In this document: positions 8,682 to 38,015 of the stretch, in pieces
Position numbering within the stretch: position 1 is the stretch's first letter
Layout of the letters: the number at the start of each line of letters is the position of its first letter
Virus record (IMG/VR): IMGVR_UViG_3300032214_000615
Length of the DNA: 64,000 nucleotides
Origin: a virus
Taxonomy: Duplodnaviria; Heunggongvirae; Uroviricota; Caudoviricetes
Reading direction: 5' to 3' (one strand)
Notes under the pieces: model-generated
Database searches by the model: none
What the model was told of the DNA's origin: nothing
Seen by the model: the letters and a program-made list of their open reading frames with translations, nothing else
Made by a program: the position numbers and the translations under genes

Positions 8682-10004
8682 ATGCCATTAGTAGTAGGAC
8701 AATCATATTCTTCTTATATAGAAATAACTGGAGCAACAAGTGCCACTGTTACTAGTGGATCACTTCCCACAGGAATAACTGGCTCTCTCAATACAGGTAC
8801 CGGACGATATAATTTGTCTGGTACACCAACTGCGGCTGGTATTTATGATTTTACCATCACTGCGACTAATGAATGTGGCACCGGTGGAGCTACTGGGTCC
8901 GCTGCTATCCCCTTCACTTTAACTGTGGGCGATTTTTCTCCGCAAACTGCGCTAACTTTTTATCATACCAACACTCTCTCACTTATGGCGCGGGACCTTA
9001 ATAATCAACAGCCATTTTCTACCCGATATTTAGTAGCATCTACGTACAATTATAATGAGTGGCAAACGCAAGCAAATCAGCCATTTAATCCACTTGTTTC
9101 TGGAATATCACCGTCGGCTTTTGGATCAATTGGTGGTTCTGTGTCTACCACTGTTCTTTCTATAGGAGTCGGAATAGATGATTACGATAACAGTCCACAA
9201 GGCAATATCAAAGATTGGACTAATTTGGTGTGGGAAGGAAGTGATAGCTATTCATTCCCAAATCAAATAGTCGGAAACACTGCTCAGGAATACGGGGGCG
9301 GAGCAGGAGTGTGGAATATACAAGAGGGTCTATCAACATTTAACGGCAATACAACTGTAACTATAGCAAATGGATTGGCCGGCAGTGGAGGAATAGATCG
9401 TGCTACTATAGCACACTGTGCCTTTATTCCTGGTAACTGGAGAGCAACTACCGTGTACTCTCCCCCAGCAGCCACTCTTGTTAGCGGAAATGGAGGGTAT
9501 CCAGTATCAAGTGCTCTTGGATTGACCACTAGTGTTTCCGAAATAGCAGAATACACTGTTACGGTTCCAGCCTTTTCTTTTATTCTCGTGGCAGCCTCAA
9601 CCGCAATCTATTACTACACATTAAATGACGATACTAATCTCAAGTATCATCAATTTTTTGATATACCAGCTGGATGTGTGACCTCATATGAAAGAGTTTT
9701 TGATGATGGCGGATATAACTCTGCCCTATCGACGATAATATGTAATTTAACTGCTAGTCAAAAGACTGTAAAAGTTAAATTGCCATCAACTATTAGTTAT
9801 AACGACGTTGATTTTGAAGGAAACCCGACCACTGGAACCGTGAGTCAAACACTAGGAAAGCAATGCGGCATATTTGTTTTTGAACCTATGACTCAGTTTA
9901 ATACAGTAATTTCCAAACCGACTTCTGCTCCAACTTGGCCTGGAGGCGGTGGTGGAGGCGGAGGCGGAGGTGGAGGAATCACTTACCCAGTATCTAATCA
10001 GTAA
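8682..10004 (+). CDS. Fiber protein paralog with N-terminal Ig-like module and C-terminal poly-Gly tract
   Basis: N-terminal MPLVVGQSYSSYIEITGATSATVTSGSLPTGITG...LSGTPTAAGIYDFTITATNECGTGG is shared with the next gene. Ends ...WPGGGGGGGGGGGGITYPVSNQ. Confidence 0.55.
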   Translation: MPLVVGQSYSSYIEITGATSATVTSGSLPTGITGSLNTGTGRYNLSGTPTAAGIYDFTITATNECGTGGATGSAAIPFTLTVGDFSPQTALTFYHTNTLSLMARDLNNQQPFSTRYLVASTYNYNEWQTQANQPFNPLVSGISPSAFGSIGGSVSTTVLSIGVGIDDYDNSPQGNIKDWTNLVWEGSDSYSFPNQIVGNTAQEYGGGAGVWNIQEGLSTFNGNTTVTIANGLAGSGGIDRATIAHCAFIPGNWRATTVYSPPAATLVSGNGGYPVSSALGLTTSVSEIAEYTVTVPAFSFILVAASTAIYYYTLNDDTNLKYHQFFDIPAGCVTSYERVFDDGGYNSALSTIICNLTASQKTVKVKLPSTISYNDVDFEGNPTTGTVSQTLGKQCGIFVFEPMTQFNTVISKPTSAPTWPGGGGGGGGGGGGITYPVSNQ

Positions 10005-10010
10005 CACATT

Positions 10011-11669
10011 ATGCCATTAGTAGTAGGACAATCATACAATGCTTATATAGAAATAACTGGAGCTACAAGCGCTAGTATTACTAGTGGCGCATTACCGGGT
10101 GGATTAGTTGGATCGTACAACGCCGGCACTAGTAGATTTACTATAACAGGCACGCCAGAGACAGCCGCAACCTATAATTTTACTATCACCGCCATTAACG
10201 CTTGCGGATCAGGTGGATCCGATGGAAGTTTCGTCAGAGATTATTCTTTAACTGTAGCCTCCCCGCCTGCTATGTCTGCTAGTATAGGCATTCCAACTCC
10301 TCAATATGTCAACGAAGGAGATGTAGTTGTATTCACTTACACTATAACAAATCGTCAAAATCAAAACGTATATTGGAGAGTAGAGGCCACGTCCCCAACA
10401 TCATCCGCGGCGATTACCTCTGATGATTTTTCTACTCCAAGTAGCGGAGTTATTAATACCGACTCTGGCAATATTACATTAACTATTAGCAGTGATTTAA
10501 CAACAGAAAACTTTGAACGATTCCGTCTTGTTTTTTATACAAATGGGACCTACACGGATTTATTAACACTTTCTACTTTCGTGGAAATCGTTGACACATC
10601 AGTTACTCCACCGTCTACTTGTGCCACTCCAACTCTAGTATCAAACATTACTCCAAGTGCTGCCACTCAGGGAACTTATACTGGAACTATACAATTATCA
10701 AACACAAGCAGTGTTGGAGTAACTTTAAATAGTCCGCCAGATTGGTCTGTTGCGTCATACGATAAAGCCACTGGAACATTAACTATTAGTGGACCATCCA
10801 GTCCGGGCTCATATAGTGTTAGCATTAACGCAATTAATAATGAAATTCCAGCAGGCTGTAATACTACTGAAATTGTTTCAATAAACGCCGGCAGCGTTAC
10901 GATTTGTAACGAAGCAACATCGGCAACTCAAACAGTAACTGGGTCATTAACTGGCACCACAGTGTGGGGCTCAAATCCTTACACTCAAGATTCTGACTTT
11001 GCTGTAGCCGCTGTTCACGCTGGGTTGGTGGCACCAGGCGCCACCGCTACTATAACTAAAACTTTTGTTGGGTACTTACAAAATTATTCAGGCACCACAG
11101 CCAATGGAGTCACAACCACAAACTGGACTACTGGATGGTGTGGCGTTCAAATTTCTCTAGCATCTGGAGGCGGTGGAGGTTCCACCTGTTTTGCTTATGG
11201 AACAAAAATACTAATGAGTGATGGTACGTCAAAGAATATTGAAGACTTACAAGAAAACGATATTATAAAAACAGTAAGCATAGCTGATTTAGATACACAA
11301 GAGACTGCGTGGGAATACTGGAGTTCAAACTCATTCGTTACTAGCAATGCCACGGCCACAGTCAAGAGCATATATGTACACACCGCAACACACTACTATA
11401 ACATCAATAATGGATTATTGAAGGTAACAGATAGCCATCCAATATTAGTAGAAAAAAATGGAATTTATAGATTCAAGCGCGTGGACTCACTAACAACCGA
11501 AGATCGTCTATTCAACGTCAACGACGGATGGATACCAATTAATTCCATTCAAATTATTAATGAACAGTTAGCCACTATAAATATAGATGTTGAAGAGCAA
11601 GACACTTACTTTGCTAATGGAATTCTTGTACACAATAAGAACGAAGAAAATCAACAATCAAATCAATAA
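10011..11669 (+). CDS. Fiber protein paralog carrying an LCCL-like domain and a C-terminal Hint (bacterial-intein-like) domain
   Basis: N-terminal module nearly identical to that of 8682-10004. LCCL signature WGSNPYTQDSDFAVAAVHAGLVAPG. SGGGGGST then CFAYGTKILMSDGT (Hint block A), TDSHPILV (block B), terminal YFANGILVHN followed by only 10 more residues. Confidence 0.6.
   Translation: MPLVVGQSYNAYIEITGATSASITSGALPGGLVGSYNAGTSRFTITGTPETAATYNFTITAINACGSGGSDGSFVRDYSLTVASPPAMSASIGIPTPQYVNEGDVVVFTYTITNRQNQNVYWRVEATSPTSSAAITSDDFSTPSSGVINTDSGNITLTISSDLTTENFERFRLVFYTNGTYTDLLTLSTFVEIVDTSVTPPSTCATPTLVSNITPSAATQGTYTGTIQLSNTSSVGVTLNSPPDWSVASYDKATGTLTISGPSSPGSYSVSINAINNEIPAGCNTTEIVSINAGSVTICNEATSATQTVTGSLTGTTVWGSNPYTQDSDFAVAAVHAGLVAPGATATITKTFVGYLQNYSGTTANGVTTTNWTTGWCGVQISLASGGGGGSTCFAYGTKILMSDGTSKNIEDLQENDIIKTVSIADLDTQETAWEYWSSNSFVTSNATATVKSIYVHTATHYYNINNGLLKVTDSHPILVEKNGIYRFKRVDSLTTEDRLFNVNDGWIPINSIQIINEQLATINIDVEEQDTYFANGILVHNKNEENQQSNQ
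11187..11666 (+). other. Hint/BIL autoprocessing domain (Cys1 ... terminal HN) at the C-terminus of the fiber protein
   Basis: Hint blocks A, B and F/G read directly in the translation. No C-extein catalytic residue follows the HN (it is followed by K and a short tail). Confidence 0.55.
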
Positions 11670-11674
11670 CGATT

Positions 11675-13096
11675 ATGAAATACATAATATCTTTTATCAA
11701 AAATACAACTGACGAACACGTTGAACAGTATATGTTGGCGAATAATATTCAAGTTTTAGAACACTTGAAAAATTTAGATCACATTTACTTAACAGAGACT
11801 GACACAGTGCCCCCTCCAGACAACAATGTAGACTACATTGTTGAAAGTGAGCTAACAAAAATTACATTGGTATCCAATAATTGTGCTAGCATACAAACAG
11901 AAACTGATGAAAATTGGTGGAAACTGTCTACGTTGAATATTGATGAGTTTGATAGCACTGGAGTGTATCATTGTAAAAATGTAACTCCTGTTAATGTTTA
12001 TGTAATGGATAGTGGACTAAATCACTCACACAGCGAATTCTCGGGAATAAACGTGGAAAATGTTTATACTTATGATGAATCCTACAGTGATGAGAGTGGT
12101 CACGGCACCGCGGTATCGTCGCTAATAGCAGGCAATACGCTAAGCTTGGCTAATGTAAATCTTAAAGTTGTGAAAGTACTTGGTACAAAGGATACTTATC
12201 TAGTTGATTTATTGCGTGGATTAGACGCTATTATTGGATCAGCAGTCAACAGCGAATACATTTCCATAGTAAACATTAGCTGGGTCATGCCAAAGTTTAC
12301 ATTCTTTGAAAATCAACTTGAAAAGCTGTTTGATAAAAATATTTTAGTAGTCTGCGCGGCTGGAAATGCTGATATGGATATAGCGTTTGTTAGTCCCGCT
12401 TCAATGAATAACGCAATTTGCGTAGGCGCATATGATGAATATTTTAGACCCTGTAATTATTCGGACTATACTGGAGAACTATCAACAATATCTAGTTGGA
12501 GTAATTACGGATCAATAAATGTCTGGGCGCCAGGCTCAAACATAAAAGTGGCTAATATTGCTGACCAATATTCAATAGCTGGCGGAACATCTTTGGCATC
12601 TGCTATACACGCGGCTAGCGTTGCTTACGCACTTGGAAATTATTACAATATGGGTTCAGTTCCACTACGTAGCAACTTTAACTTCTATATGAGCGTGGTG
12701 TCTACCTTATCTGGCGTCAATTCCGGATTAATTGATTTTAGACACAGTTATGGACAATATAGTAATATTTCTACTGCTAGAACTAGCTTGGTCAAATCAC
12801 AAGTAAATCAATCAACTGACGTACTTATGGCACCAAATTCTTCTAATTTCTCTGTTAAAAATAATGGCGTGACTTTTGTAAAATGTATTCTCACCTCTTC
12901 TATAAAAGATGTAAGCATATCTGGATTGCCAGATGGACTATCTCTTACTGACGGTTGGATAATAGGAAAACCAACAATAGAATTTCCAGAGGACGAATCG
13001 GTAAAACAGTTAAATTTTGATTGTGTAATACAGTTCACTGTTATGAATCAAACGGAACCACAATCATTGCCAATTAAAGTTATTGTTAGAAGGTAA
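11675..13096 (+). CDS. Subtilisin-like serine protease (peptidase S8) with a C-terminal Ig-like (He_PIG) domain; probable virion-associated enzyme
   Basis: Catalytic motifs in order: VYVMDSGLNHSH (Asp), SGHGTAVSSLIAG (His), VVCAAGNAD (oxyanion Asn), GGTSLASAIHAASVAYA (Ser). C-terminal ISGLPDGLSLTDGWIIGKPT matches the Ig-like repeat of the fiber genes. Confidence 0.8.
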   Translation: MKYIISFIKNTTDEHVEQYMLANNIQVLEHLKNLDHIYLTETDTVPPPDNNVDYIVESELTKITLVSNNCASIQTETDENWWKLSTLNIDEFDSTGVYHCKNVTPVNVYVMDSGLNHSHSEFSGINVENVYTYDESYSDESGHGTAVSSLIAGNTLSLANVNLKVVKVLGTKDTYLVDLLRGLDAIIGSAVNSEYISIVNISWVMPKFTFFENQLEKLFDKNILVVCAAGNADMDIAFVSPASMNNAICVGAYDEYFRPCNYSDYTGELSTISSWSNYGSINVWAPGSNIKVANIADQYSIAGGTSLASAIHAASVAYALGNYYNMGSVPLRSNFNFYMSVVSTLSGVNSGLIDFRHSYGQYSNISTARTSLVKSQVNQSTDVLMAPNSSNFSVKNNGVTFVKCILTSSIKDVSISGLPDGLSLTDGWIIGKPTIEFPEDESVKQLNFDCVIQFTVMNQTEPQSLPIKVIVRR

Positions 13097-13412
13097 TAAA
13101 ATGAAATTTTTGGAAAGATTACAGCAACGAAAGCAGGACATAGCAAATAAGGTACAAGATGCTACCGATTTTGTGATAAAAGAAACAACTCAAGTAGCCA
13201 CTATGGTTACCAATACTGTGGTAGATGCGATCAAAGAAAACATAATTGATCCGATCATAGAAACCGATCAAGAAATTGTAGATAAAAGATTCAATACTTG
13301 TCTAGCGTGTGATAAGTTTAATCACAGTTCACAGCGCTGTAACGAATGTGGATGCTTCATGCAGGTAAAAACAAAATTTAAGCACGTTACTTGCCCGCTT
13401 AATAAGTGGTAA
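13083..13412 (+). CDS. Small protein with C-terminal zinc-ribbon (CLACD...CNECGC...CP)
   Basis: 109 aa ORF overlapping the end of the S8 gene. Cys cluster CLACDKFNHSSQRCNECGCFMQVKTKFKHVTCP. Confidence 0.45.
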   Translation: MLEGNKMKFLERLQQRKQDIANKVQDATDFVIKETTQVATMVTNTVVDAIKENIIDPIIETDQEIVDKRFNTCLACDKFNHSSQRCNECGCFMQVKTKFKHVTCPLNKW

Positions 13413-13462: not shown

Positions 13463-13645
13463 ATGAACGACGATACTCTTTTTGATTTCAGCAATTTACC
13501 TCCAAAAAAGAAAAAGAATGTTGTAGACGATGTACGCAACATTCTTATAGTTGAATTTCCTGGCGACAAAGCTGGAGAACAACGTGCGAAACAATTGTTT
13601 GAAGAATTGCGTGATCGTGGTTACACATTAAAGATAATGACATGA
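13463..13645 (+). CDS. Hypothetical small protein
   Basis: 60 aa ORF; its stop overlaps the start of the next gene (ATGA). Confidence 0.35.
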   Translation: MNDDTLFDFSNLPPKKKKNVVDDVRNILIVEFPGDKAGEQRAKQLFEELRDRGYTLKIMT

Positions 13646-14763
13646 ACAATTCAAGAACATTTGAAGTAACGCTAAAGACTGACGCGCCCAATGATTTCTA
13701 TTGTATCAAGGCTGCGAACAGCGTTGACTTGGATATAGAGAAGAAGTTAACTCATCACTTAAAGGTCACTGCTGACATAGATTCCGACTACAACATAGGG
13801 TTGATCATAGGCAACAGTGGTAGTGGTAAGACAACACTAGCCAAGCACATCTGGGGCGACGAGTGCTTTGACACACTGCTAGACAAAGATCGTGCGATAA
13901 TTAGTCAATTTGATGATAGTTATGGCTATGATGAACGAGTTCAATTTTTGAGCGGCGTTGGTCTAGCAAGTCCAACGTGCTGGATCGCACCAGCAAAGAC
14001 GCTATCCAACGGTCAACAAGCACGAGCCGAGATAGCACTACAGATGGCTCGCACTGACGGTAAGTTTACTGTTATAGATGAGTGGACAAGTGTAGTAGAC
14101 AGAACAGTTGCCAAGGCAATGAGTCACGCTATTCAAAAGCATGCTCGTAAAACTGGCAAAACAATTGTGTTGTTAAGTTGTCACTATGATGTAGTTGAGT
14201 GGTTGAATCCAGATTGGATCATTGACTGTAATCTACAAGAGTATACTGACCGGAGGTCACTTTGTCGAGGGTTTACCAGATCCGAGCAACTTGTTTTTGG
14301 GATTAGACAGCTTACCGACTCAAAAAGTTGGGGTGTCTTTAGCAAATATCACTATTTAACTGATACACTTCCTCCGGGAAAGACCTTAATGTTTGGTCTG
14401 TTTCACGAAGACACGCAGATAGGATTTATTGCGTACTCAAATTACGTGATGTGGAAGCAAGAGCATAAAGACAAGGGTTTGCCAATGGTCATGCATGCCA
14501 ACCGAATAGTAGTACATCCAGATTACTGCGGGTTTGGTCTTGGAGGAAAATTAACTGATATTACTGCTGACTATCTACAGAACACACTCGGATATGATGT
14601 TCAAATCAAACTAAGTAGTGTCAGTATGGCTAATCTGCTAAAGCGTAATACACGCTGGGAGTTACGTGACGTTAGCAGAAACGTCAACAACATCTGGGGT
14701 AATCATAAAGGCAGAACTGGTCGCATAGACGTTAAGACATACTCATTTAAATTTTTAGGATAA
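13642..14763 (+). CDS. Soluble ABC-type ATPase domain fused to a C-terminal GNAT acyltransferase-like domain
   Basis: Walker A GNSGSGKTTLA, Q-loop SQF, ABC signature LSNGQQARAEIAL, Walker B/D-loop FTVIDEWTSVVD, H-loop LLSCHYD. Then GNAT motif A MHANRIVVHPDYCGFGLGGKL. No transmembrane domain. Confidence 0.65.
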   Translation: MNNSRTFEVTLKTDAPNDFYCIKAANSVDLDIEKKLTHHLKVTADIDSDYNIGLIIGNSGSGKTTLAKHIWGDECFDTLLDKDRAIISQFDDSYGYDERVQFLSGVGLASPTCWIAPAKTLSNGQQARAEIALQMARTDGKFTVIDEWTSVVDRTVAKAMSHAIQKHARKTGKTIVLLSCHYDVVEWLNPDWIIDCNLQEYTDRRSLCRGFTRSEQLVFGIRQLTDSKSWGVFSKYHYLTDTLPPGKTLMFGLFHEDTQIGFIAYSNYVMWKQEHKDKGLPMVMHANRIVVHPDYCGFGLGGKLTDITADYLQNTLGYDVQIKLSSVSMANLLKRNTRWELRDVSRNVNNIWGNHKGRTGRIDVKTYSFKFLG

Positions 14764-14856
14764 TTATTGTGGACTTTTTATTCTTTTTAGTTGTTGCGGT
14801 ATCAATAATTGCTATAGTTGGTAGTATGATATACTTATTGATTAACCCAGAACAGG

Positions 14857-15045
14857 ATGATATTGATGAAATCATTACAAAAAACACTGCTGATATTGTT
14901 GATCGCTAATCTACTGGTACTACTACTAGTAATAGTATTCGGAATCAAATTCAGTTCCGATATACACGTACAATGTACAAGTTGGGTTGAAATTCAGGGC
15001 ACAAACTCATTGTACAAAGAACGTATGTGTAACGTCGCTCAATAA
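14857..15045 (+). CDS. Small single-pass membrane protein
   Basis: 62 aa, hydrophobic stretch LLILLIANLLVLLLVIVFGI. Confidence 0.4.
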   Translation: MILMKSLQKTLLILLIANLLVLLLVIVFGIKFSSDIHVQCTSWVEIQGTNSLYKERMCNVAQ

Positions 15046-15098: not shown

Positions 15099-15467
15099 AT
15101 GATTAAAAAAATATTAGTGGCGTTCCTATTCTGCTTAGCAAGCACCATAGCCAACGCCAACGCATTCAAAGTAAATAGAGAATTAGCGTGTAACACACTA
15201 TCCGAGATAGCAAAAATTCTAAATGAGTTTGATGAAAAGTATGTTTGGCAAGGAAAAAATTCTCAAAAATTGCAGACAATGTTGGTAGTCAATACTAAAT
15301 CTCAAACCTGGACTTTAGTTATGACTGATGGTCAATTGGCTTGCGTGCTTGATTCTGGCGAAGGATTTCTGTTGCCAGGGCAATCAGAAAAAAAATCTGA
15401 AGTAAAACCACAAGCAGACAAGAAAAAAGATTCTAAGAATTTAGTTGATATTAACTTTGTTCAGTAG
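15099..15467 (+). CDS. Secreted protein (Sec signal peptide)
   Basis: MIKKILVAFLFCLASTIANANA signal peptide, strong RBS AAGGAG 7 nt upstream, Lys-rich C-terminus. Confidence 0.55.
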   Translation: MIKKILVAFLFCLASTIANANAFKVNRELACNTLSEIAKILNEFDEKYVWQGKNSQKLQTMLVVNTKSQTWTLVMTDGQLACVLDSGEGFLLPGQSEKKSEVKPQADKKKDSKNLVDINFVQ

Positions 15468-19708: not shown

Positions 19709-20149
19709 ATGTTAGCAGACGAACTAAAAAAACTACTGGGCACTACCTTTGTGTTGTACACAAAAGTGCATGGCTTCCACTTTAATGTAGAAGGCCCTGA
19801 CTTCCCACAATATCATCAACTACTTGGAGATATTTACGAAGACATTTATTCATCTATAGATAAGATAGGCGAATACATACGCACACTAGACAGTTACACG
19901 CCCGGCAGTTTAGCCCGTATGCTAGAACTCAGTGTCATACAAGAGCAGCCAAAGATACCACGTGCTGAGTTGATGTTTGCTGAACTTATCGAGAACAACA
20001 CGGACTACATTTGCCTGTTGAACGAATGCTTCAAGTGTGCAGACGAAGAGAATCAACAAGGTATAGCAGACTTCATTGCTGGGCGTCTAGATGCTATGAA
20101 CAAACATCAGTGGATGATGAAGGCTATAATGAAGCGTCAGCGGGCGTGA
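19709..20149 (+). CDS. dps: Dps-family (ferritin-like) DNA-protection protein
   Basis: LYTKVHGFHFNVEGPDFPQYHQLLGDIYEDIYSSIDKIGEYIRTL matches the Dps di-iron/ferroxidase helix region (compare E. coli Dps [26 protein letters not shown]). Confidence 0.75.
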   Translation: MLADELKKLLGTTFVLYTKVHGFHFNVEGPDFPQYHQLLGDIYEDIYSSIDKIGEYIRTLDSYTPGSLARMLELSVIQEQPKIPRAELMFAELIENNTDYICLLNECFKCADEENQQGIADFIAGRLDAMNKHQWMMKAIMKRQRA

Positions 20150-20186: not shown

Positions 20187-20273
20187 ATTGCCAACTTCTT
20201 AGCAGAAAGATTAGAAGCAATGAACAAGCACGCCTGGATGATGCGCAGCATACTTAAAAAAGAACGAGCATGA
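20187..20273 (+). pseudogene. Diverged duplicate of the last 28 codons of the dps gene, out of frame with dps and ending at the start codon of the next gene
   Basis: Translates to IANFLAERLEAMNKHAWMMRSILKKERA*; the true Dps C-terminus is IADFIAGRLDAMNKHQWMMKAIMKRQRA*. Confidence 0.5.
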
Positions 20274-21292
20274 AAATAGTTGAGTTACTAGAGAACATTA
20301 ATGTAACAGAGGGTGTACATGACCCTGCCATATTCAAAGTGGTGTTCATCATAGGCGGCCCTGGTAGCGGTAAGAGTAGAGTGGCGCATATGCTAGCTTT
20401 AAAATCGTTGGGATTTGTAAGCGTCAATAGTGATGAAGCGTTCTCTCATTTGTTGAAAAAGTCTGGGTTGAATTTAAAGATGCCTCCAGAAGAAGAGGCT
20501 CAACGCAGTAGCGTTCGTGCTAGAGCTAAAGAGATCACTGCTAACAAGATGCAGCTAGCGCTTGATGGGCGTCTTGGTATAGTAATTGACGGCACGGGCG
20601 AAGACTACAGAAAGATAGAGGGCATACACGCTAACTTAAGTGAGATGGGCTACGAGAGTTTCTTGGTAGTGGTCTATGCTAATCTAGAGACTGCCAAGCG
20701 TAGAAATGCTGCCAGAGAGCGCAGCGTACCCGAACATGTTGTTGAGAAGAAGTGGTACGGCGTTCAACAGAACTTGGACAACTTTTTGACGATGTTTGAC
20801 AATAGTGTAATCATTGACAATAATGGTACCGTATCTGATTTGACTCCACAGACCGAGCATGCTTACAAGATGATAGCGCGATGGTCACGAGTCAAATCTA
20901 GCTCACCCGAGGCGCAAAATTGGATCAATGATCAACTTGGTAACGACGATGACGATGATGTTGAAGACGATGATGTTGAAGACGATGATGTTGAAGATGA
21001 AGACATTCCAGAGCCTGAAGACGAAGTTACAGATGAGCCAGTGAAAGAGGGCTATTACAAAAATAAAGTCATAGCACAGCAAGAGTTAATGAATAAGCAA
21101 ACTGGTCAGTGGCCTACAGTTGATAATGCTGTTAGTCAAATAAAACCTAAATTTTGGAATGTAGAGATAAACGGCAAAATTTGGAAAAAATGGCGTGAAC
21201 CTGTTAAGATTCCAGATAGTAGAATAGATCGTGTTATTGATTCCATTCGTGGTCCGCAAGATGTAGTTAAAAAAATACCGGCAAAATCATGA
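20270..21292 (+). CDS. P-loop kinase, most like a polynucleotide 5'-kinase (T4 Pnk kinase-domain-like), with an acidic low-complexity insert
   Basis: Walker A VVFIIGGPGSGKSRVA followed by VSVNSDEAF (compare T4 Pnk GCPGSGKST ... NVNRDDYR). Acidic DDDDDVEDDDVEDDDVEDEDIPEPEDE tract. No HAD phosphatase motif. Confidence 0.5.
   Translation: MKIVELLENINVTEGVHDPAIFKVVFIIGGPGSGKSRVAHMLALKSLGFVSVNSDEAFSHLLKKSGLNLKMPPEEEAQRSSVRARAKEITANKMQLALDGRLGIVIDGTGEDYRKIEGIHANLSEMGYESFLVVVYANLETAKRRNAARERSVPEHVVEKKWYGVQQNLDNFLTMFDNSVIIDNNGTVSDLTPQTEHAYKMIARWSRVKSSSPEAQNWINDQLGNDDDDDVEDDDVEDDDVEDEDIPEPEDEVTDEPVKEGYYKNKVIAQQELMNKQTGQWPTVDNAVSQIKPKFWNVEINGKIWKKWREPVKIPDSRIDRVIDSIRGPQDVVKKIPAKS
20945..21004 (+). repeat. 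Three tandem 15-nt repeats (GTTGAAGACGATGAT) encoding VEDDD units
   Basis: Direct reading of the sequence. Confidence 0.8.
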
Positions 21293-26936: not shown

Positions 26937-29474
26937 ATGAGTTTAAATTTTGACGATCAATTATCTATAACTGAAGCAGAAATGTCCCCCAGTGCATTTA
27001 GCGGAGCATTACAGCAGGGTGAAGTTGATCGCGTGCTTGTTGGGTTTGAATTTGAATTCTGCATGCCTAAGAGCAAAATTAAAGAACTCACTGCGTCTAC
27101 AACTACTACCACTACTTCAACTGAAGAAGAAATATTTCAACAATTACGACGAACAAATTTGTTACACTATACTCCATACGGCAGTATTAATCTAGCTAAT
27201 TTTAATAAATGTTTTAAAGTAAAGCCTGGATTTAAATATCCTACTCTTGGTATGGGATTGCGTGGCTATATAGATGCCACGATTGATAAGTGTATTAAAA
27301 TATTCTATGAAATTCCGGAAGAAGAGCGAGCTAGAATTTCTAAAGTGGCTCTTAAGAAATTACGAGAACAGGGCGCAGCACAAATGCTTAATGTAGGTAC
27401 TTTTTGTGTTATTAGCGCGGCAAAATTATTAAGATATAAAACAGATCAGATAGCTTATCTAAGATATTTTTGCCAGGAAGCATCGCGAGAGCGTACTATC
27501 CCCATGCAATGGAGTAACTCTAAGTATAAAAAAATTATAGATTTAATTTATGGTCGTTTAATAACTTATAAATTTTTATTATATTTTATTACTGGAGCAT
27601 CTCAAGAAAGAATCGTACAAAATCCACAAGATTATTTAGATATAGTATCAATTGACGCTGCCAACAACATCTTATCTGTCAGTGAGCGTGCTACTGGTAG
27701 TTCATATATGGATTATGCTAAAGCTGTTTCAAAACTATGTCAGAGTTATGTTAAAAAGACGCCAATAATATTCATTCGTCGTCATGAAAGACCAAAAAAT
27801 CTAGTAGATTGGTATATTGAGCCTGATGGTAGTGTTATACCCACTGATTCTGAACAGGGAGGAGAATTAGTTAGTCCGCCGTTTAGGCCTGCTGTTGCCA
27901 TGGATATGTTAAAACAGTTTTACGCCATGTCTGTAGAGGGACAATTTAATGTAAGCAAAGCTAGAAAAACTGGACTACATATAAATGTCAGCATACCTAA
28001 GAAAATTGATTTGTTAAAGTTGGCAATATTTACAGCCGATGATCGTATTTTGACTCAATTTGATAGACAGAATTATGACTACGCTGTCAATGTAATGAAC
28101 AGTTTAAAACAATCTTTATCTAGTAATACTAAATTAAAAAACGACGCTAGAGTTGATAGTGATAAGGTATTGTCACGGATTGAATCTATTGCCAAAGGAA
28201 TAATGAAAGATCACACTGCCAGTATCAGTTCTGAAAACAAAAACTATATTAGTTTTCGCAGCGTTGGATTTGATTATTTAAGCCCCGGGCAGTTTAAACA
28301 TGTTGTAGATGCTGTTGGACGATTTGTTCGCGCTATAATTATTGCCAGCGACCCAGACGCATATCGTTCTGAGTATCTAAAGAAATTACAAGACTTGCTT
28401 GAAACTAATATACCAAAAAAAGAAAATCTGACAACTTCAGAATTAATAAATCTGTATCGTAATATAAAACAAAATGGTATACCAGCAATCAAAACAATAG
28501 CATATCTTACTAAAAATAATAAAAAAGCAGCAAATAAAATAGATTATTTTGGAAGCATGCTTCTTCATCTTTCTGGTTTAACCCAGCGATCTTATAAACC
28601 TAAAGAAATAATTAATACTCCAGTAAGAAATGCCACTGACGAAGAAAAGAACTTATTAACGACTACTATTACCGCCAGCAATAAACCGGCAAACATCAAT
28701 GCCACTGTTGATAAAATTAATGATCCAGTCGCAACTATAAAAACTGTAACGCTAACTGCTTCAAAAAACCCAGAAATATTAATCAAAATTATTAATATGG
28801 CTGATTCAGTAGTTAAATTACAACAAACAATGACAATGACTTACTACACTGGTGTAGAGTATCTAGGATATGGTGGTTGGGGATTAGTACAACCAACTAG
28901 AATACCCATAACAGATGATCCAGCAACTACCGATATATTAAAATACTTGAAGAGACAAATAGAAAAATCAAAAGAAACGACAAAAAAACTTAATTTACCA
29001 GAAATGATTCAAGAAGAATTAGATGTAAATAAGATTTATTACTTTGCGTATGGTATGTTGACCGACGAGAGCAAAATGAAACACTTGAACGCCAAGAAAA
29101 TAGGCAGAGCAGTACTATCTGATTTTAAATTGGAATTATTACAGCATGCTAATATCGTCAAAGAATCTGGATCAAAAGTTGTGGGTGTACTTTGGGAAAT
29201 AGATAAAGACGCACAAGATGTCTTGGATCAGATTGAGGGTTATCCAGTATATTACAATAGAATAGTAGCATCAGTAAAAACAGATACTGATGTGGTAGAT
29301 GCCGAAGTTTATATTATGACCGATCAATCTCGCAAACATTCATATGAACACGGATATCCTACTCAGAGATACGTAGATGACATAGTTCGTGGATATCGTG
29401 CCGCACGAATTAATATAAATCAGCTAATCACTGCTCTAAATGAATTAAACAGTAGACTTGACGATGAAAAGTAA
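26937..29474 (+). CDS. Amidoligase (glutamine-synthetase-like fold, Amidoligase_2-type) fused to a C-terminal gamma-glutamyl cyclotransferase (GGCT/AIG2-like) domain
   Basis: N-terminal VGFEFEFCMP (ExE ligand motif), GGELVSPP, TGLHINVS. C-terminal YYFAYGMLTDES...KVVGVLWEIDKDAQDVLDQIEGYPVYYNR (GGCT pattern YGSL...G.LY.I....LD..EGY...Y.R). Confidence 0.55.
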   Translation: MSLNFDDQLSITEAEMSPSAFSGALQQGEVDRVLVGFEFEFCMPKSKIKELTASTTTTTTSTEEEIFQQLRRTNLLHYTPYGSINLANFNKCFKVKPGFKYPTLGMGLRGYIDATIDKCIKIFYEIPEEERARISKVALKKLREQGAAQMLNVGTFCVISAAKLLRYKTDQIAYLRYFCQEASRERTIPMQWSNSKYKKIIDLIYGRLITYKFLLYFITGASQERIVQNPQDYLDIVSIDAANNILSVSERATGSSYMDYAKAVSKLCQSYVKKTPIIFIRRHERPKNLVDWYIEPDGSVIPTDSEQGGELVSPPFRPAVAMDMLKQFYAMSVEGQFNVSKARKTGLHINVSIPKKIDLLKLAIFTADDRILTQFDRQNYDYAVNVMNSLKQSLSSNTKLKNDARVDSDKVLSRIESIAKGIMKDHTASISSENKNYISFRSVGFDYLSPGQFKHVVDAVGRFVRAIIIASDPDAYRSEYLKKLQDLLETNIPKKENLTTSELINLYRNIKQNGIPAIKTIAYLTKNNKKAANKIDYFGSMLLHLSGLTQRSYKPKEIINTPVRNATDEEKNLLTTTITASNKPANINATVDKINDPVATIKTVTLTASKNPEILIKIINMADSVVKLQQTMTMTYYTGVEYLGYGGWGLVQPTRIPITDDPATTDILKYLKRQIEKSKETTKKLNLPEMIQEELDVNKIYYFAYGMLTDESKMKHLNAKKIGRAVLSDFKLELLQHANIVKESGSKVVGVLWEIDKDAQDVLDQIEGYPVYYNRIVASVKTDTDVVDAEVYIMTDQSRKHSYEHGYPTQRYVDDIVRGYRAARININQLITALNELNSRLDDEK

Positions 29475-36090: not shown

Positions 36091-37050
36091 ATGATTAAAT
36101 GTTTAGAATGCGGATTTGAGTCCAGCAGACTTCAATGGACTCATTTCAAATATAAGTGTACCGGACGTTTTCAAAATGGAACGGAATATTTGAAGGCGTA
36201 TCCGCATGCAAAAGTAGTTGATACTGAGTTGGCTTCTAAAACTACACTAACAAAATCAAAATTCATTGAAAAATATGGTGAAAAAGAAGGAATTGAAAAA
36301 TGGGATGCTTATAGAAATAAGCAAGCGTACTCAAATTCCTTTGAGTACAAACAACAAAAATATGGGTGGACTCAACAGCAATTTGATGAATATAACTCAA
36401 ATAGAGCGGTGACGTTAGAAAAGTGTATCCAGCGACACGGAGAGAACGAGGGCGTTCATGTATGGAATGAATATGTTCAAAAGCAAGCATATACAAAAAC
36501 GCAAGCATACTTTATTGAGAAATATGGAGAAAAAATAGGAACAGAAAAATTTTCTCAAGTAAATTTTCTGAAAAGTGCAGCCGTAAATCCCAAAACTATG
36601 GCAGAGGTAAAAAACATATCGGTTGACGACGCTGTTGATATTATTCTTAACAGAAAGAATATGTTCAGATATACGTCAAATCTAGAAAAGGAATTTGTAG
36701 AGAAACTAGAACATCGCATTGGCCCAATGCAACATACGAGCGTCAATAAACCATATGGAAAATGGTCAACGTTGCTGAATTCATACGTGGTATTTGATGT
36801 AAAACATAATGATTGTGTGATAGAATTCAACGGAGATTACTGGCATTGTAATCCAAAGTTATACGAATCGATTGATACTGGCCCTGGAAATAAAACAGCT
36901 CAAGAAATTTGGGATAGGGATGCTAAAAAAATTCAAACAGCGAGAAATCTTGGATTTAGAGTACTGACTGTGTGGGAATCAGATTACATAAAGAACAAAC
37001 AAAAAATTATAGAAGAGGTGATTGAATGGATGCTGAATGGACAAAAGTAA
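36091..37050 (+). CDS. Free-standing homing-endonuclease-like protein (zinc finger + repeated YGxxxG modules + Vsr-like nuclease) located between the two halves of the split intein
   Basis: CLECGFESSRLQWTHFKYKC. Repeats FIEKYGEKEGIEKWDAY / FIEKYGEKIGTEKFSQV. C-terminal VIEFNGDYWHCNPKLY...LGFRVLTVWESDY (Vsr motifs). Confidence 0.7.
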   Translation: MIKCLECGFESSRLQWTHFKYKCTGRFQNGTEYLKAYPHAKVVDTELASKTTLTKSKFIEKYGEKEGIEKWDAYRNKQAYSNSFEYKQQKYGWTQQQFDEYNSNRAVTLEKCIQRHGENEGVHVWNEYVQKQAYTKTQAYFIEKYGEKIGTEKFSQVNFLKSAAVNPKTMAEVKNISVDDAVDIILNRKNMFRYTSNLEKEFVEKLEHRIGPMQHTSVNKPYGKWSTLLNSYVVFDVKHNDCVIEFNGDYWHCNPKLYESIDTGPGNKTAQEIWDRDAKKIQTARNLGFRVLTVWESDYIKNKQKIIEEVIEWMLNGQK

Positions 37051-37151
37051 GTAAAATTGAATGCTTGGGTGAAGTAGATGACTATGTGTATGATATAAGC
37101 ATAGAGAATCAAGACCCATTCTTTTTTGCCAATGATATTTTGGTTCATAAT
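37026..37151 (+). mobile_element. Split intein, C-terminal half (IntC)
   Basis: Ends HN, then the +1 Thr of the extein. Confidence 0.75.
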
Positions 37152-38015
37152 ACAGATAGCTGCTATTTCAGTGCATATCCTACTCTCAAGCAGGATATTG
37201 ACAGCCGCAAGATTGAGTGGAATAAAGACGTAGCTATTCAGTTATACGATCAAATAGCAGAGAATACCAATGCCAGTTTCCCACAGTTTATGGAACGAGC
37301 GTTTCACTGTCCACGAAAGAATGGCGCTATTATCAAAGCCGGGCGTGAATTGGTAGCTGATCGTGGAATCTTTATGACCAAGAAGCGCTATGCTGTTAAC
37401 ATCTATGACAAAGAGGGTAAGCGACTAGACGTTAACGGTAAACGTGGTAAGATCAAGGCTATGGGTCTTGATCTAAAACGCGCAGACACTCCAAAATACA
37501 TACAAAACTTTTTGTTTGATATTTTGGAAGATGTACTCGCTGGCGTCAGTCGCGTCGAGATTGTCGAGAAAATTAAAGCATTCAAAATAAATCTGGAACA
37601 ACAGCCTGCTTGGACAAAGGGCAGTCCCAAGGGAGTTAATAAGCTAACCTGGTATGGCGAACAGCAAGAAAAGGCTGATAAAAAAATCAATATGCCAGGG
37701 CACGTTCGCGCTAGTTTAAATTGGAATTACTTGAGAACTTTGAACAATGATACGTACAGTCAAAAAATAGTTGACGGTATGAAAATCGTAGTATGTAAGT
37801 TAAAAGATAATTTACTAGGAATGACCAGTATTGCGTATCCAACTGATGAGCTAAGACTGCCTTCTTGGTTCTTGGAACTTCCTTTTGATGATCGTGGTAT
37901 GGTTCAAACTCTTATTGATGAAAAGATAGAAAATTTATTGGGAGTGTTAAAGTGGAACATATCCAAAGACATTAATACCAGTAGCACTTTTAATTCATTA
38001 TTTACATTTTCTTAA
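37026..38015 (+). CDS. Split-intein C-terminal half (42 aa) fused to family-B DNA polymerase fragment 3 (TDS of motif C and thumb)
   Basis: GEVDDYVYDISIENQDPFFFANDILVHN (blocks F/G) immediately followed by TDSCYFSAY, which completes YGD|TDS. Confidence 0.8.
   Translation: MDAEWTKVSKIECLGEVDDYVYDISIENQDPFFFANDILVHNTDSCYFSAYPTLKQDIDSRKIEWNKDVAIQLYDQIAENTNASFPQFMERAFHCPRKNGAIIKAGRELVADRGIFMTKKRYAVNIYDKEGKRLDVNGKRGKIKAMGLDLKRADTPKYIQNFLFDILEDVLAGVSRVEIVEKIKAFKINLEQQPAWTKGSPKGVNKLTWYGEQQEKADKKINMPGHVRASLNWNYLRTLNNDTYSQKIVDGMKIVVCKLKDNLLGMTSIAYPTDELRLPSWFLELPFDDRGMVQTLIDEKIENLLGVLKWNISKDINTSSTFNSLFTFS

Follow-up and report, generated by a model that had tools for sequence, protein, structure and literature searches.

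We find that the window, the whole 64,000-nucleotide stretch of viral DNA analyzed here, encodes at 13642..14763 (plus strand, ATG to stop) a true soluble fusion of an ABC-type ATPase with a GNAT acyltransferase (373 aa; ABC-GNAT), in which both catalytic motif sets are intact and which, together with an overlapping upstream gene, constitutes a two-gene module. Based on its context, we suggest, at a probability of roughly 0.4, that this module, whose upstream member is usually a ParB-tail protein, carries out ATP-driven, late-expressed acylation of DNA bases. The initial annotation had proposed a protein, peptide or nucleic-acid target or a toxin-like effector, which is too broad: toxin and peptide lack specific support, while DNA is favored because the ParB module is common to DNA methyltransferases and because of the pre-terminase position, the natural fusions of the two genes and the neighboring formyltransferase. 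A literature search found no experiments on any ABC-GNAT family member and no paper on the ParB/ABC-GNAT pair or the conserved ParB-tail partner.

The AlphaFold model of ABC-GNAT (pLDDT 87.2, pTM 0.82), searched with Foldseek, matches both ABC domains and GNATs, bearing out the two folds that had been proposed from the sequence. Motifs, Pfam and Foldseek place a soluble ABC nucleotide-binding domain at residues ~1-204 (13642..14253, plus strand; pI 5.3). On the same strand, motif reading locates Walker A, GNSGSGKT, at residues 57-64 (13810-13833), the Q-loop at Q89 (13900-13911), the signature LSNGQ at residues 121-125 (14002-14016), Walker B, VIDE, at 144-147 (14071-14082), the D-loop SVVD at 150-153 (14089-14100) and the H-loop SCHYD, with H181, at 179-183 (14176-14190). 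The ABC motifs are thus complete and in the order first described; they and GNAT motif A are invariant or nearly so among 43 homologues, and the motif order and a RecA-like core with its helical subdomain establish membership of the ABC ATPase superfamily. Pfam ABC_tran scores 30.8 bits (cut-off 25, E 5e-7). By structure, Foldseek ranks transporter nucleotide-binding domains first (Wzt, MalK, MacB and HlyB, E 6e-8 to 1e-5, with 8dne at 6e-8), not Rad50, SMC or UvrA, a likeness that counts against DNA acylation; by sequence, the top solved-structure match is UvrA (E 8e-7).

Many database records name such proteins as ordinary ABC transporter ATP-binding subunits (siderophore, Mn/Zn or ECF), and the structural likeness just described agrees with those names; we nevertheless give this reading almost no credence. 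A permease gene is absent from all ~160 loci examined and from the window, NCBIfam scores fall an order of magnitude under every transporter-family cut-off, neither a GNAT fusion nor a ParB partner has a place in a transporter, and the reading is already contradicted. As initially annotated, there is also no membrane domain: the Kyte-Doolittle maximum over a 19-residue window is 1.08, and ABC-GNAT is soluble, with no hydrophobic membrane segment. With neither permease gene nor membrane segment, the transporter assignment was rejected. PADLOC returned only generic ABC matches for ABC-GNAT (mad3, mad8) and no known defense or anti-defense system beyond these.

The remainder of the protein, residues ~205-373 (14254..14760, plus strand; pI 9.7), is a divergent GNAT acyltransferase domain, its predicted fold confirmed through structure and not through Pfam. 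Foldseek matches on this side include Naa60 (5icv, E 2.7e-6, TM on target 0.56), 6tgx (0.62) and PA1377 (2vi7, 0.60), and a BFVD structure search matched many viral GNATs (TM on target 0.54-0.68). Pfam GNAT families all score under their cut-offs (best E 1.2e-4), the best curated match being Acetyltransf_CG at 22.6 bits versus a cut-off of 30; distant relatives, including fusions, carry precomputed PF00583 and PF13508 matches. A GNAT-only profile against PDB sequences gave marginal matches (E 0.02) that are uninformative on substrate. The C-terminal GNAT and motif A that had been read from the sequence are thereby upheld as to fold but not as to size, which is ~150-170 aa instead of 130. Motif A, RIVVHPDYCGFGLG, spans residues 288-301 (14503-14544, plus strand) and reads RIVVHPDY-C-GFGLG, with Cys or Ala replacing the Q/R of Q/R-x-x-G-x-G/A; G297 and G299 are invariant among homologues, whose alignment also reveals an invariant F..YHYL motif (14347-14358, plus strand). 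The domain is predicted to use acyl-CoA, and it is reasonable to picture the fusion as a clamp that is driven by ATP and works together with an acyl-CoA transferase. The basic pI of the GNAT domain and the UvrA match, UvrA being DNA-binding, lean weakly toward DNA.

ABC-GNAT is a further member of a catalogued phage/prophage family, PHROG 11143, which matches it over its full length (E 1.5e-73; residues 10-372, profile positions 4-349 of 357) and shares both domains and their order, with no difference in architecture. The view of this architecture as unusual does not hold: a homology search returned 2060 homologues at E<=1e-5, which, like the PHROG match, is far above chance, and the family runs to thousands of members across many bacterial phyla and the phages that infect them, ~60 sequenced phages included. 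JGI labels family members "ABC-type ATPase with predicted acetyltransferase domain", which we take to be COG2401. Compared with its closest relative (L089, 94% identical), the gene has a dN/dS of 0.034; the window itself has no nucleotide similarity to known phages.

The upstream gene of the window, a 60-aa ORF at 13463..13645 (plus strand), is, as judged from tail-profile and tblastn matches and its conservation, the remnant of a ParB-like partner. A typical partner begins with a ParB N-terminal domain (NTP-binding, ParB/Srx), continues through a disordered, acidic linker and ends in a C-terminal tail of ~35 aa. A profile of 67 partner tails, run against 926 six-frame ORFs of the window, matched this ORF only (E 8.7e-9), and tblastn with the Pmp13 partner found it at E 0.003; it is a stand-alone tail, predicted to fold as strand-helix-strand (NILIVEF...EQRAKQLFEELRDRGYTLKIMT), and a ParB N-domain match was found nowhere in the window. 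The ORF is conserved in the relatives L089, L005 and L088, with a dN/dS of 0.067 relative to L089, indicating purifying selection. Its stop codon and the ABC-GNAT start codon share an ATGA (13642..13645, plus strand, read directly), an overlap that suggests translational coupling of the two genes; the annotations of Pmp13, LE4, prophage 315.4, phiE255 and BiggityBass show this short overlap as well.

This arrangement is general. Of 74 assessable IMG/VR loci, 71 have a ParB+tail gene adjacent to ABC-GNAT, as do 65 of 80 genome loci spread over many phyla; Pfam ParB_N itself was found in 30 of 44 partners. Truly tail-only partners occur in about six (5-6) genome loci and as gp28 of phiE255; the ParB domain has been lost and the tail kept in the window and, independently, in a Mu-like/betaproteobacterial clade. 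In one clade the whole pair is joined into a single ParB-tail-ABC-GNAT chain, and as Rosetta-stone evidence for the pairing there are a 611-aa ORF of L106 and more than 90 clusters of such natural fusions (560-650 aa) that cover at least 95% of the fusion. The partner, we infer, docks onto the ABC-GNAT protein by way of its tail, for which the AlphaFold model of one fusion offers indirect support: its tail helix is predicted with confidence (pLDDT 86-92) and its linker is disordered.

The same gene order, with a small acidic upstream gene overlapping the GNAT gene by 4 bases, would also fit a toxin-antitoxin-like or addiction module in which ABC-GNAT is the toxin and the upstream tail the antitoxin, as in TacA-TacT and AtaR-AtaT, and the retention of the tail alone after loss of the ParB domain agrees with such a role. 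We consider this very improbable, however, since toxins of the TacT/AtaT type are ~160-180 aa without an ATPase and their antitoxins carry an RHH or HTH, whereas the present enzyme carries an ABC domain and its partner has a ParB domain or nothing in place of an RHH or HTH DNA-binding domain. Furthermore, the supposed "antitoxin" and "toxin" are commonly joined in one chain, the late-operon position is fixed, and strictly lytic and T4-like or jumbo phages carry the module (LE3/LE4, PX29 and the phage of the window).

The principal link to DNA comes from the ParB domain. In PADLOC, the first 150 positions of the Type II methyltransferase model match 36 of the 44 partners (best E 1e-44), and partners reach 61-65% identity to the N-terminal parts of proteins annotated as phage (adenine) DNA methyltransferases; the partner ParB domain is the same module as in phage adenine DNA methyltransferase fusions. 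Such ParB-methyltransferase fusions are frequent in phages (PMC12704722), the ParB domain of one ParB-methylase is described as nicking DNA (work cited in PMC5512222), and phage T-dioxygenases, which modify DNA bases, require a ParB-like helper that activates them (PMC13229309). The ParB-fused phage methyltransferases share with the present module both the ParB N-domain and the pre-terminase slot; in contrast, the catalytic unit of ABC-GNAT is neither a SAM methyltransferase nor a dioxygenase, and it is held non-covalently through the 35-aa tail or, in one clade, by fusion. The ParB-less module of the window differs from both systems, and the absence there of the ParB domain, which is dispensable in several lineages, weakens the case for DNA acylation.

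On the other hand, ParB/Srx domains can be nucleotidases (PMC5512222), and ParB-CTPase folds bind various NTPs, one ParB-acetyltransferase fusion binding GTP (PMC12704722). The latter is not equated with a member of the partner family; its Box II reads GNHRLEA versus GH(G/L)R in the family, and because of this difference it is probably another protein. These properties would suit a small-molecule acyltransferase acting on a nucleotide-derived immune signal, a polyamine, an amino sugar or an antibiotic, with ParB/Srx as an NTP-binding or NTP-degrading helper. Small-molecule amines are the substrates of most GNATs and of PF00551 formyltransferases. We regard this alternative as improbable, as it leaves a mechanical ABC ATPase with no obvious role and the late-operon placement unexplained, and no biosynthetic genes adjoin the module.

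The ParB-tail/ABC-GNAT module usually lies just upstream of terminase genes; in small phages it forms the head of the late/packaging operon, directly before them, and downstream ORFs from 44 IMG/VR and phage loci match four large-terminase Pfam families (19, 14, 6 and 1 proteins). In streptococcal phage Javan65, this slot holds a ParB-adenine methyltransferase and a cytosine methyltransferase; in prophage 315.4 it holds ParB-tail, ABC, GNAT and ASCH. Because unrelated accessory genes also gather in this slot, location is a weak argument by itself. In phiE255, a Mu-like phage, the module follows the tail-fibre genes, the position of mom in Mu. The window gene has no adjoining terminase gene, which speaks against DNA acylation: a scan of 20 window ORFs gave no match to terminase families and no DNA-modification genes elsewhere in the window.

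A constant place beside the terminase could mean a packaging-related client. Read as a protein acetyltransferase, which we hold to be unlikely, the enzyme would use its ABC domain to recognize or remodel a client whose lysine or N-terminus is then acetylated by the GNAT domain. Clients could be proteins of host defense, host translation or phage packaging, by analogy with AcrVA5 and the RimI-like GNATs of phage polyvalent proteins. The top structural GNAT matches are N-terminal acetyltransferases (Naa60, 5icv/6tgx), RimI-clade phage GNATs are predicted to modify proteins (PMC5512222), and a gene beside ABC-GNAT is labelled "acr candidate" in Porphyromonas phage records. Early action on host defenses, however, fits poorly with a late operon, and protein acetylation leaves unexplained both the ParB module of DNA methyltransferases and the natural fusions. 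The tail is an unlikely substrate because the Lys near its C-terminus, although nearly invariant, is Arg in many partners.

Comparison with solved structures brings RNA into consideration. TmcA (2zpa) and Kre33/NAT10 (5jpq_i), which among solved structures are the only P-loop ATPase + GNAT proteins matched across both domains, align with ABC-GNAT in Foldseek over ~400 columns and, like it, have a P-loop NTPase N-terminal to the GNAT domain; the rmsd of 14-15 A implies a different arrangement of the domains. TmcA uses ATP hydrolysis to drive the acetyl-CoA-dependent acetylation of a base amine. An RNA-directed enzyme might thus acetylate cytidine N4 of tRNA/rRNA in the manner of TmcA/NAT10, or the alpha-amine of aminoacyl-tRNA in the manner of GNAT toxins, in some clades together with an Fmt/PurN-like formyltransferase. 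The basic GNAT domain and the ASCH-domain gene that adjoins the module in prophage 315.4 are in keeping with this, as is the PF00551 formyltransferase gene directly downstream of the module in one clade (phiE255, Gordonia phage BiggityBass and 11 genome loci), since PF00551 also includes Met-tRNA formyltransferase. This neighbor, however, is ~205-215 aa long with a single Pfam domain and lacks the C-terminal tRNA-binding domain of Fmt. TmcA/NAT10 combine a helicase-type ATPase with DUF1726 and a tRNA-binding domain, whereas ABC-GNAT has an ABC domain, neither extra domain and a ParB-like partner whose kinship with DNA methyltransferases points to DNA; we therefore consider action on RNA distinctly unlikely. 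Membership of the TmcA/NAT10 family itself was rejected, as the ATPase is ABC-type and there is no Pfam or NCBIfam TmcA match. For a DNA target, the same neighbor has a parallel in DpdN, a phage PF00551 enzyme predicted to formylate a DNA base amine (PMC10516641).

The Mom protein of phage Mu offers the other comparison. Mom is a GNAT-fold enzyme that makes N6-carbamoylmethyl-adenine in DNA, and, to our knowledge, enzymatically acylated DNA bases in phages are known only through it. It resembles ABC-GNAT in the GNAT fold, late expression and, in phiE255, genome position, and both would modify a DNA base amine against restriction; Mom, in contrast, has no ATPase and is without the Q/RxxGxG/A loop that is intact in ABC-GNAT. 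The Mom family (PF25680) was rejected on a Pfam score of 16 bits (cut-off 27, E 0.009), and kinship with Mom was likewise dismissed, hhalign giving a probability of ~1% against Mu Mom and BFVD placing it at rank 38, below ordinary GNATs. That the GNAT domain is not specifically Mom-like, nor nearer to the GNAT of TmcA than to ordinary protein or small-molecule GNATs, counts against DNA acylation.

In the DNA acylation that we propose, the tail would dock the partner onto the ABC-GNAT protein, and ATP binding would bring two ABC domains together as a head-to-tail dimer, as is common to all ABC ATPases. This dimer may engage nucleic acid, most likely replicated phage DNA prior to packaging; ATP hydrolysis would then present a base to the basic GNAT domain, which would acylate an exocyclic amine, either N6 of adenine or N4 of cytosine, with acyl-CoA as the donor. 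The ParB domain, where present, could load or activate the enzyme on DNA and would be dispensable in the jumbo-phage lineage of the window. Overall, the module would be a DNA-acting, ATP-coupled counterpart of TmcA/NAT10, which offer the precedent of a P-loop ATPase joined to a GNAT, with an anti-restriction role like that of Mom or the ParB-fused methyltransferases. Two considerations weigh against this chemistry: exocyclic base amines are poor nucleophiles, and we know of no phage report of N-acetylated DNA bases. A bolder version, which we hold to be doubtful, is that ParB-tail/ABC-GNAT represents a widespread, unrecognized ABC-ATPase-driven N-acylation of phage DNA bases, that in the clade with the PurN-like formyltransferase the transferred group might carry a free amine (e.g., an aminoacyl such as glycyl) that is then formylated in a new two-step hypermodification, and that the jumbo phage of the window has a minimal, ParB-free version.

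If the module does modify DNA, it would represent a new kind of phage DNA modification, and a very common one, as well as the first case of an ABC ATPase working with an enzyme that modifies nucleic acid, concerning thousands of prophages and phages of many phyla, including streptococcal, lactococcal, Burkholderia and actinobacterial phages, with a bearing on restriction evasion, sequencing artefacts and phage engineering. Whatever its function, the database annotation of the ABC-GNAT family as a transporter is corrected, and the obligate partner is defined as a tail of 35 aa, which in most cases is attached to a ParB domain of the methyltransferase type. With natural single-chain fusions of both genes in existence, this is now a defined two-gene system that is cheaply testable.

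Among the neighbors named as context in the initial annotation, the short ORF at 13463 proved relevant, as the partner remnant, but neither the subtilase nor the zinc-ribbon gene is a conserved neighbor. The subtilase (Peptidase_S8, 11675-13096, Pfam E 6e-22) and the DUF6171 zinc ribbon (13083-13412, by domain match) accompany ABC-GNAT only in L089 and are absent near it in L005 and L088 (79-83% identity) and in all distant relatives, on which ground a functional tie to ABC-GNAT was rejected. Small hydrophobic ORFs lie downstream of the ABC-GNAT gene in the window.

The ABC-GNAT gene (13642-14763, + strand) is intact from ATG to stop and encodes 373 residues, in which all six ABC motifs reported by the initial annotation were located: Walker A GNSGSGKT (residues 57-64), Q-loop Q89, signature LSNGQ (121-125), Walker B VIDE (144-147), D-loop SVVD (150-153), and H-loop H181. 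GNAT motif A, RIVVHPDYCGFGLG, occupies residues 288-301, and the motifs of both domains show no or almost no variation across 43 aligned homologues (52-94% identity). Pfam ABC_tran scores over its gathering cut-off; all Pfam GNAT families score under theirs, so the GNAT assignment rests on structure. Foldseek searches of the PDB with an alignment-based AlphaFold2 model (mean pLDDT 87.2, pTM 0.82) matched the ABC part to ABC nucleotide-binding domains (Wzt 8dne, E 6e-8; MalK; MacB) and the GNAT part to Naa60 (5icv, E 2.7e-6) and PA1377 (2vi7), with TM scores on the target of 0.56-0.62. Both a GNAT fold and a canonical ABC core, on which the original observation had been staked, are present, and it therefore stands.

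TmcA (2zpa) and Kre33/NAT10 (5jpq_i), the two solved enzymes combining a P-loop ATPase with a GNAT domain, were matched across ~400 columns. TmcA/NAT10 are the most similar in working principle, as ATPase-coupled GNATs; ABC-GNAT is no member of that family, and its GNAT domain, whose profile reaches just E 0.02 against PDB sequences, forms a separate, divergent family. Membership of Mom fails, with Pfam Mom below its cut-off and an hhalign probability of ~1%; in the BFVD ranking a Mom model comes 38th, after ordinary GNATs. Among rival readings of the function, acetylation of a protein, as the Naa60 hit might suggest, is unlikely, that of RNA or aminoacyl-tRNA, on the model of TmcA/NAT10, somewhat less likely still, and transfer to a small molecule is improbable.

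The ABC domain is structurally nearer transporter nucleotide-binding domains than DNA-binding ABC proteins (Foldseek), and its top solved-structure sequence match is UvrA. The protein has no membrane helix (peak 19-residue Kyte-Doolittle value 1.08), as originally claimed, and the transporter annotation common in database records is effectively excluded. The GNAT domain is basic (isoelectric point 9.7) and the ABC domain acidic (5.3); the basic GNAT domain and the UvrA match are weaker hints towards DNA.

The architecture had been called unusual, a description that did not survive database comparison. ABC-GNAT aligns along its whole length with PHROG 11143 (labelled "unknown function"; E 1.5e-73) and is a new member of this catalogued family with no assigned function; 2060 homologues were found at E<=1e-5 in a large protein collection, several labelled "ABC-type ATPase with predicted acetyltransferase domain" by JGI, and a second protein search seeded with a fused relative gave at least 7730 matches. 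IMG/VR yielded >598 loci, and a scan restricted to one genome per species another 348, from Bacteroidota, Proteobacteria, Planctomycetota, Actinomycetota, Acidobacteriota, Patescibacteria, and one archaeal MAG. Matches by tblastn lie in 80 sequenced phage records, of which ~60 reach past the ABC domain; the weakest (Rhizobium, Klebsiella/SSU5-like, and Escherichia) cover the ABC part only. Carriers of the fusion include Pasteurella Pmp13 (52% identity), Leptospira LE3/LE4, Aeromonas PX29, Burkholderia phiE255, S. pyogenes prophages 315.4 and phiNIH1.1, Lactococcus P335, and Gordonia and Arthrobacter phages. In prophage 315.4 and related streptococcal, lactococcal, and Oenococcus phages, ABC and GNAT are annotated as separate genes and tblastn matches in two pieces. 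No known phage is related to the window at the nucleotide level; its closest protein relatives (74-94% identical) come from metagenomic contigs as long as 235 kb, and the window also has genes for a DNA polymerase and for a giant virion protein, so it derives from an uncultured large phage.

The neighbour that is conserved is the partner gene directly upstream, whose stop codon overlaps the ABC-GNAT start codon (ATGA). Upstream ORFs were taken from the fetched loci, and profiles built on them were then used for searching; an adjacent gene encoding a ParB domain plus tail was present in 71 of 74 assessable IMG/VR loci and 65 of 80 genome loci, and in Pmp13, LE4, and prophage 315.4 it is annotated as ParB-like (~180 aa). 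Pfam ParB_N is matched by 30 of 44 aligned partners, which carry a Box-II-like motif, (A/D)GH(G/L)R. All partners end in a conserved C-terminal element of ~35 aa, in which an acidic helix (E.E...LFEEL..RG) lies between a hydrophobic strand and a final strand (.CK/R..).

In the window, the partner is a 60-aa ORF (13463-13645, + strand) that aligns to this tail and to nothing else; it is the sole match of a 67-tail profile among 926 six-frame window ORFs (E 8.7e-9), and the ParB N-domain is encoded nowhere within the window. The ORF is kept in the relatives L089, L005, and L088, with a dN/dS against L089 of 0.067, compared with 0.034 for the enzyme gene. In L005 (7520-8014) and L088 (5520-6014), a 164-aa HNH_3 homing-endonuclease gene, absent from the window and L089, sits exactly between the 61-aa tail ORF and ABC-GNAT.

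Loss of ParB with retention of the tail also took place as independent events outside the window's lineage: phiE255 gp28 is a 54-aa tail without a ParB domain (tail profile E 5e-12), and tail-only partners occur in five or six betaproteobacterial, alphaproteobacterial, and Bacteroides loci. Conversely, a planctomycete-associated clade fuses both genes into a single ParB-linker-tail-ABC-GNAT polypeptide (a 611-aa ORF in locus L106 and >90 clusters of 560-650 aa); one such fusion, modelled with AlphaFold (overall pLDDT 87, pTM 0.67), has a confident tail helix (pLDDT 86-92) and a disordered linker. Taken together, these results establish the tail rather than the ParB domain as the obligate element of the partner, and show that partner and ABC-GNAT act as one unit. 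A small upstream gene overlapping the enzyme gene in this way could also be read as a toxin-antitoxin-like pair, which we consider very unlikely for a unit that also occurs as one chain.

Several lines point to DNA as the target. The partner's ParB module is that of phage DNA methyltransferases: the PADLOC Type II methyltransferase model PDLC03229 is matched over positions ~9-155 by 36 of 44 aligned partners (best E 1e-44), and in tblastn the Pmp13 partner is up to 61-65% identical to the N-termini of annotated (adenine) DNA methyltransferases. ParB-like proteins also have a documented role in assisting enzymes that modify DNA: phages are enriched in ParB-methyltransferase fusions (PMC12704722), nicking activity in a ParB-methylase is cited in PMC5512222, and a subclass of phage thymine dioxygenases requires a cognate ParB-like activator (PMC13229309; bioRxiv 10.1101/2025.08.14.668559). 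Such ParB-assisted DNA modifiers are, with TmcA/NAT10, the most similar in working; ABC-GNAT is no member. A bacterial ParB-CTPase-acetyltransferase fusion, reported as the sole GTP-specific binder (PMC12704722, Fig. 5, Fig. S6), differs from the partners in its Box II (GNHRLEA vs. GH(G/L)R). ParB-like genes also lie within ~1 kb of ABC-part-only matches in Salmonella phage SSU5 (JQ965645/NC_018843, ~100.5-101.8 kb) and Rhizobium phage RHph_N2_6 (17.7-19.4 kb); these matches span query residues ~77-206 only and may represent a related ParB and ABC pair without the GNAT domain.

The position of the module is strikingly constant across four terminase lineages: in a set of downstream ORFs drawn from 44 loci, 40 proteins matched large-terminase families (19 Terminase_6N, 14 Terminase_3, 6 TerL_ATPase, 1 GpA). 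In related streptococcal phages the slot before terS/terL holds ParB-tail, ABC, GNAT, and an ASCH-domain gene in prophage 315.4, and a ParB-adenine-methyltransferase fusion plus a cytosine methyltransferase in Javan65; the ASCH-domain gene (L003:6125-6502) directly follows the module. In the Gordonia phage the module genes are numbers 1 and 2, before the terminase gene, and in Mu-like phiE255 they come after the tail-fibre genes, the site of mom in Mu. This placement fits late activity, on replicated DNA prior to packaging.

The gene for a second amine-acylating enzyme, a PF00551 formyltransferase (~205-215 aa), lies directly downstream of ABC-GNAT in phiE255 (gp30, L173:4948-5562), BiggityBass (gp3, L174:1823-2473), and 11 genome loci (within L150-L172). 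It keeps the HPSLLP motif and the Asp, with the catalytic Asn apparently replaced (GYH vs. NxH). The loci with a true tail-only partner all belong to this clade; the window has no such formyltransferase gene. For DpdN, a phage PF00551 protein, the predicted activity is formylation of the dPreQ1 aminomethyl group in DNA (PMC10516641).

Our best mechanistic reading, to which we assign a probability of roughly 0.4, is ATP-driven acylation of DNA. ABC ATPases perform mechanical work through ATP-dependent head-to-tail dimerisation, and in TmcA the fused P-loop module must hydrolyse NTP for cytidine N4 to be acetylated with acetyl-CoA; the mechanism is proposed by analogy with these two properties. 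The tail would tether the partner to the enzyme, ATP would close the ABC dimer on DNA to expose a base, and the GNAT domain would move an acyl group onto an exocyclic amine. The ParB domain, where present, would load or activate the complex on DNA, a role that may have been lost or taken over in the window's lineage. The DNA reading is weakened by the transporter-like structure of the ABC domain, by the divergence of the GNAT domain and its lack of specific kinship with Mom, and by the missing ParB domain in the window, where the gene is also not beside a terminase gene, and the positional argument by the unrelated accessory genes that the pre-terminase slot also gathers.

We found no experimental work in the literature on any family member, nor any description of the partnership through the tail, the ParB module of methyltransferase type, the fusions into one chain, the slot ahead of the terminase genes in four terminase lineages, or the clade with a formyltransferase gene. 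Should DNA acylation prove correct, the family would amount to a new class of DNA modification in phages, and a widespread one.

The subtilase (Peptidase_S8, E 6e-22) upstream and the DUF6171 zinc-ribbon gene, first taken as meaningful neighbours, accompany ABC-GNAT only in L089 (94% identity) and are already gone from L005 and L088 (79-83%). Of the initial interpretation, then, the folds hold and the unusual architecture and choice of neighbours do not, and the proposed function ranged too broadly over targets (protein, peptide, nucleic acid, or toxin-like). Beyond the enzyme gene lie two overlapping small ORFs (14769-14909 and 14857-15045), both containing a single, strongly hydrophobic segment (KD19 2.9-3.2), and the gene of a 122-aa protein whose N-terminus resembles a signal peptide (15099-15467); all three are of insufficient size for an ABC permease.

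Elsewhere in the window, the adjacent paralogous genes 8682-10004 and 10011-11669 share an N-terminus (MPLVVGQSY..YIEITGATSA...); the former ends in a 12-Gly run, and in the latter an LCCL domain (E 7.5e-9) precedes weak, sub-threshold Hint/intein-like matches at the C-terminus. The end of ORF 36091-37050 matches REase_MTES_1575 and the start of ORF 37026-38015 a C-terminal intein splicing motif, both under Pfam cut-offs; a host gene may have been interrupted here by an intein or homing endonuclease. The window also encodes a ferritin/Dps-like protein (19709-20149, E 1.8e-20), a Zeta-toxin/AAA_33-type P-loop kinase (20270-21292), and an 845-aa protein whose C-terminal domain is a gamma-glutamyl cyclotransferase (GGACT; 26937-29474).
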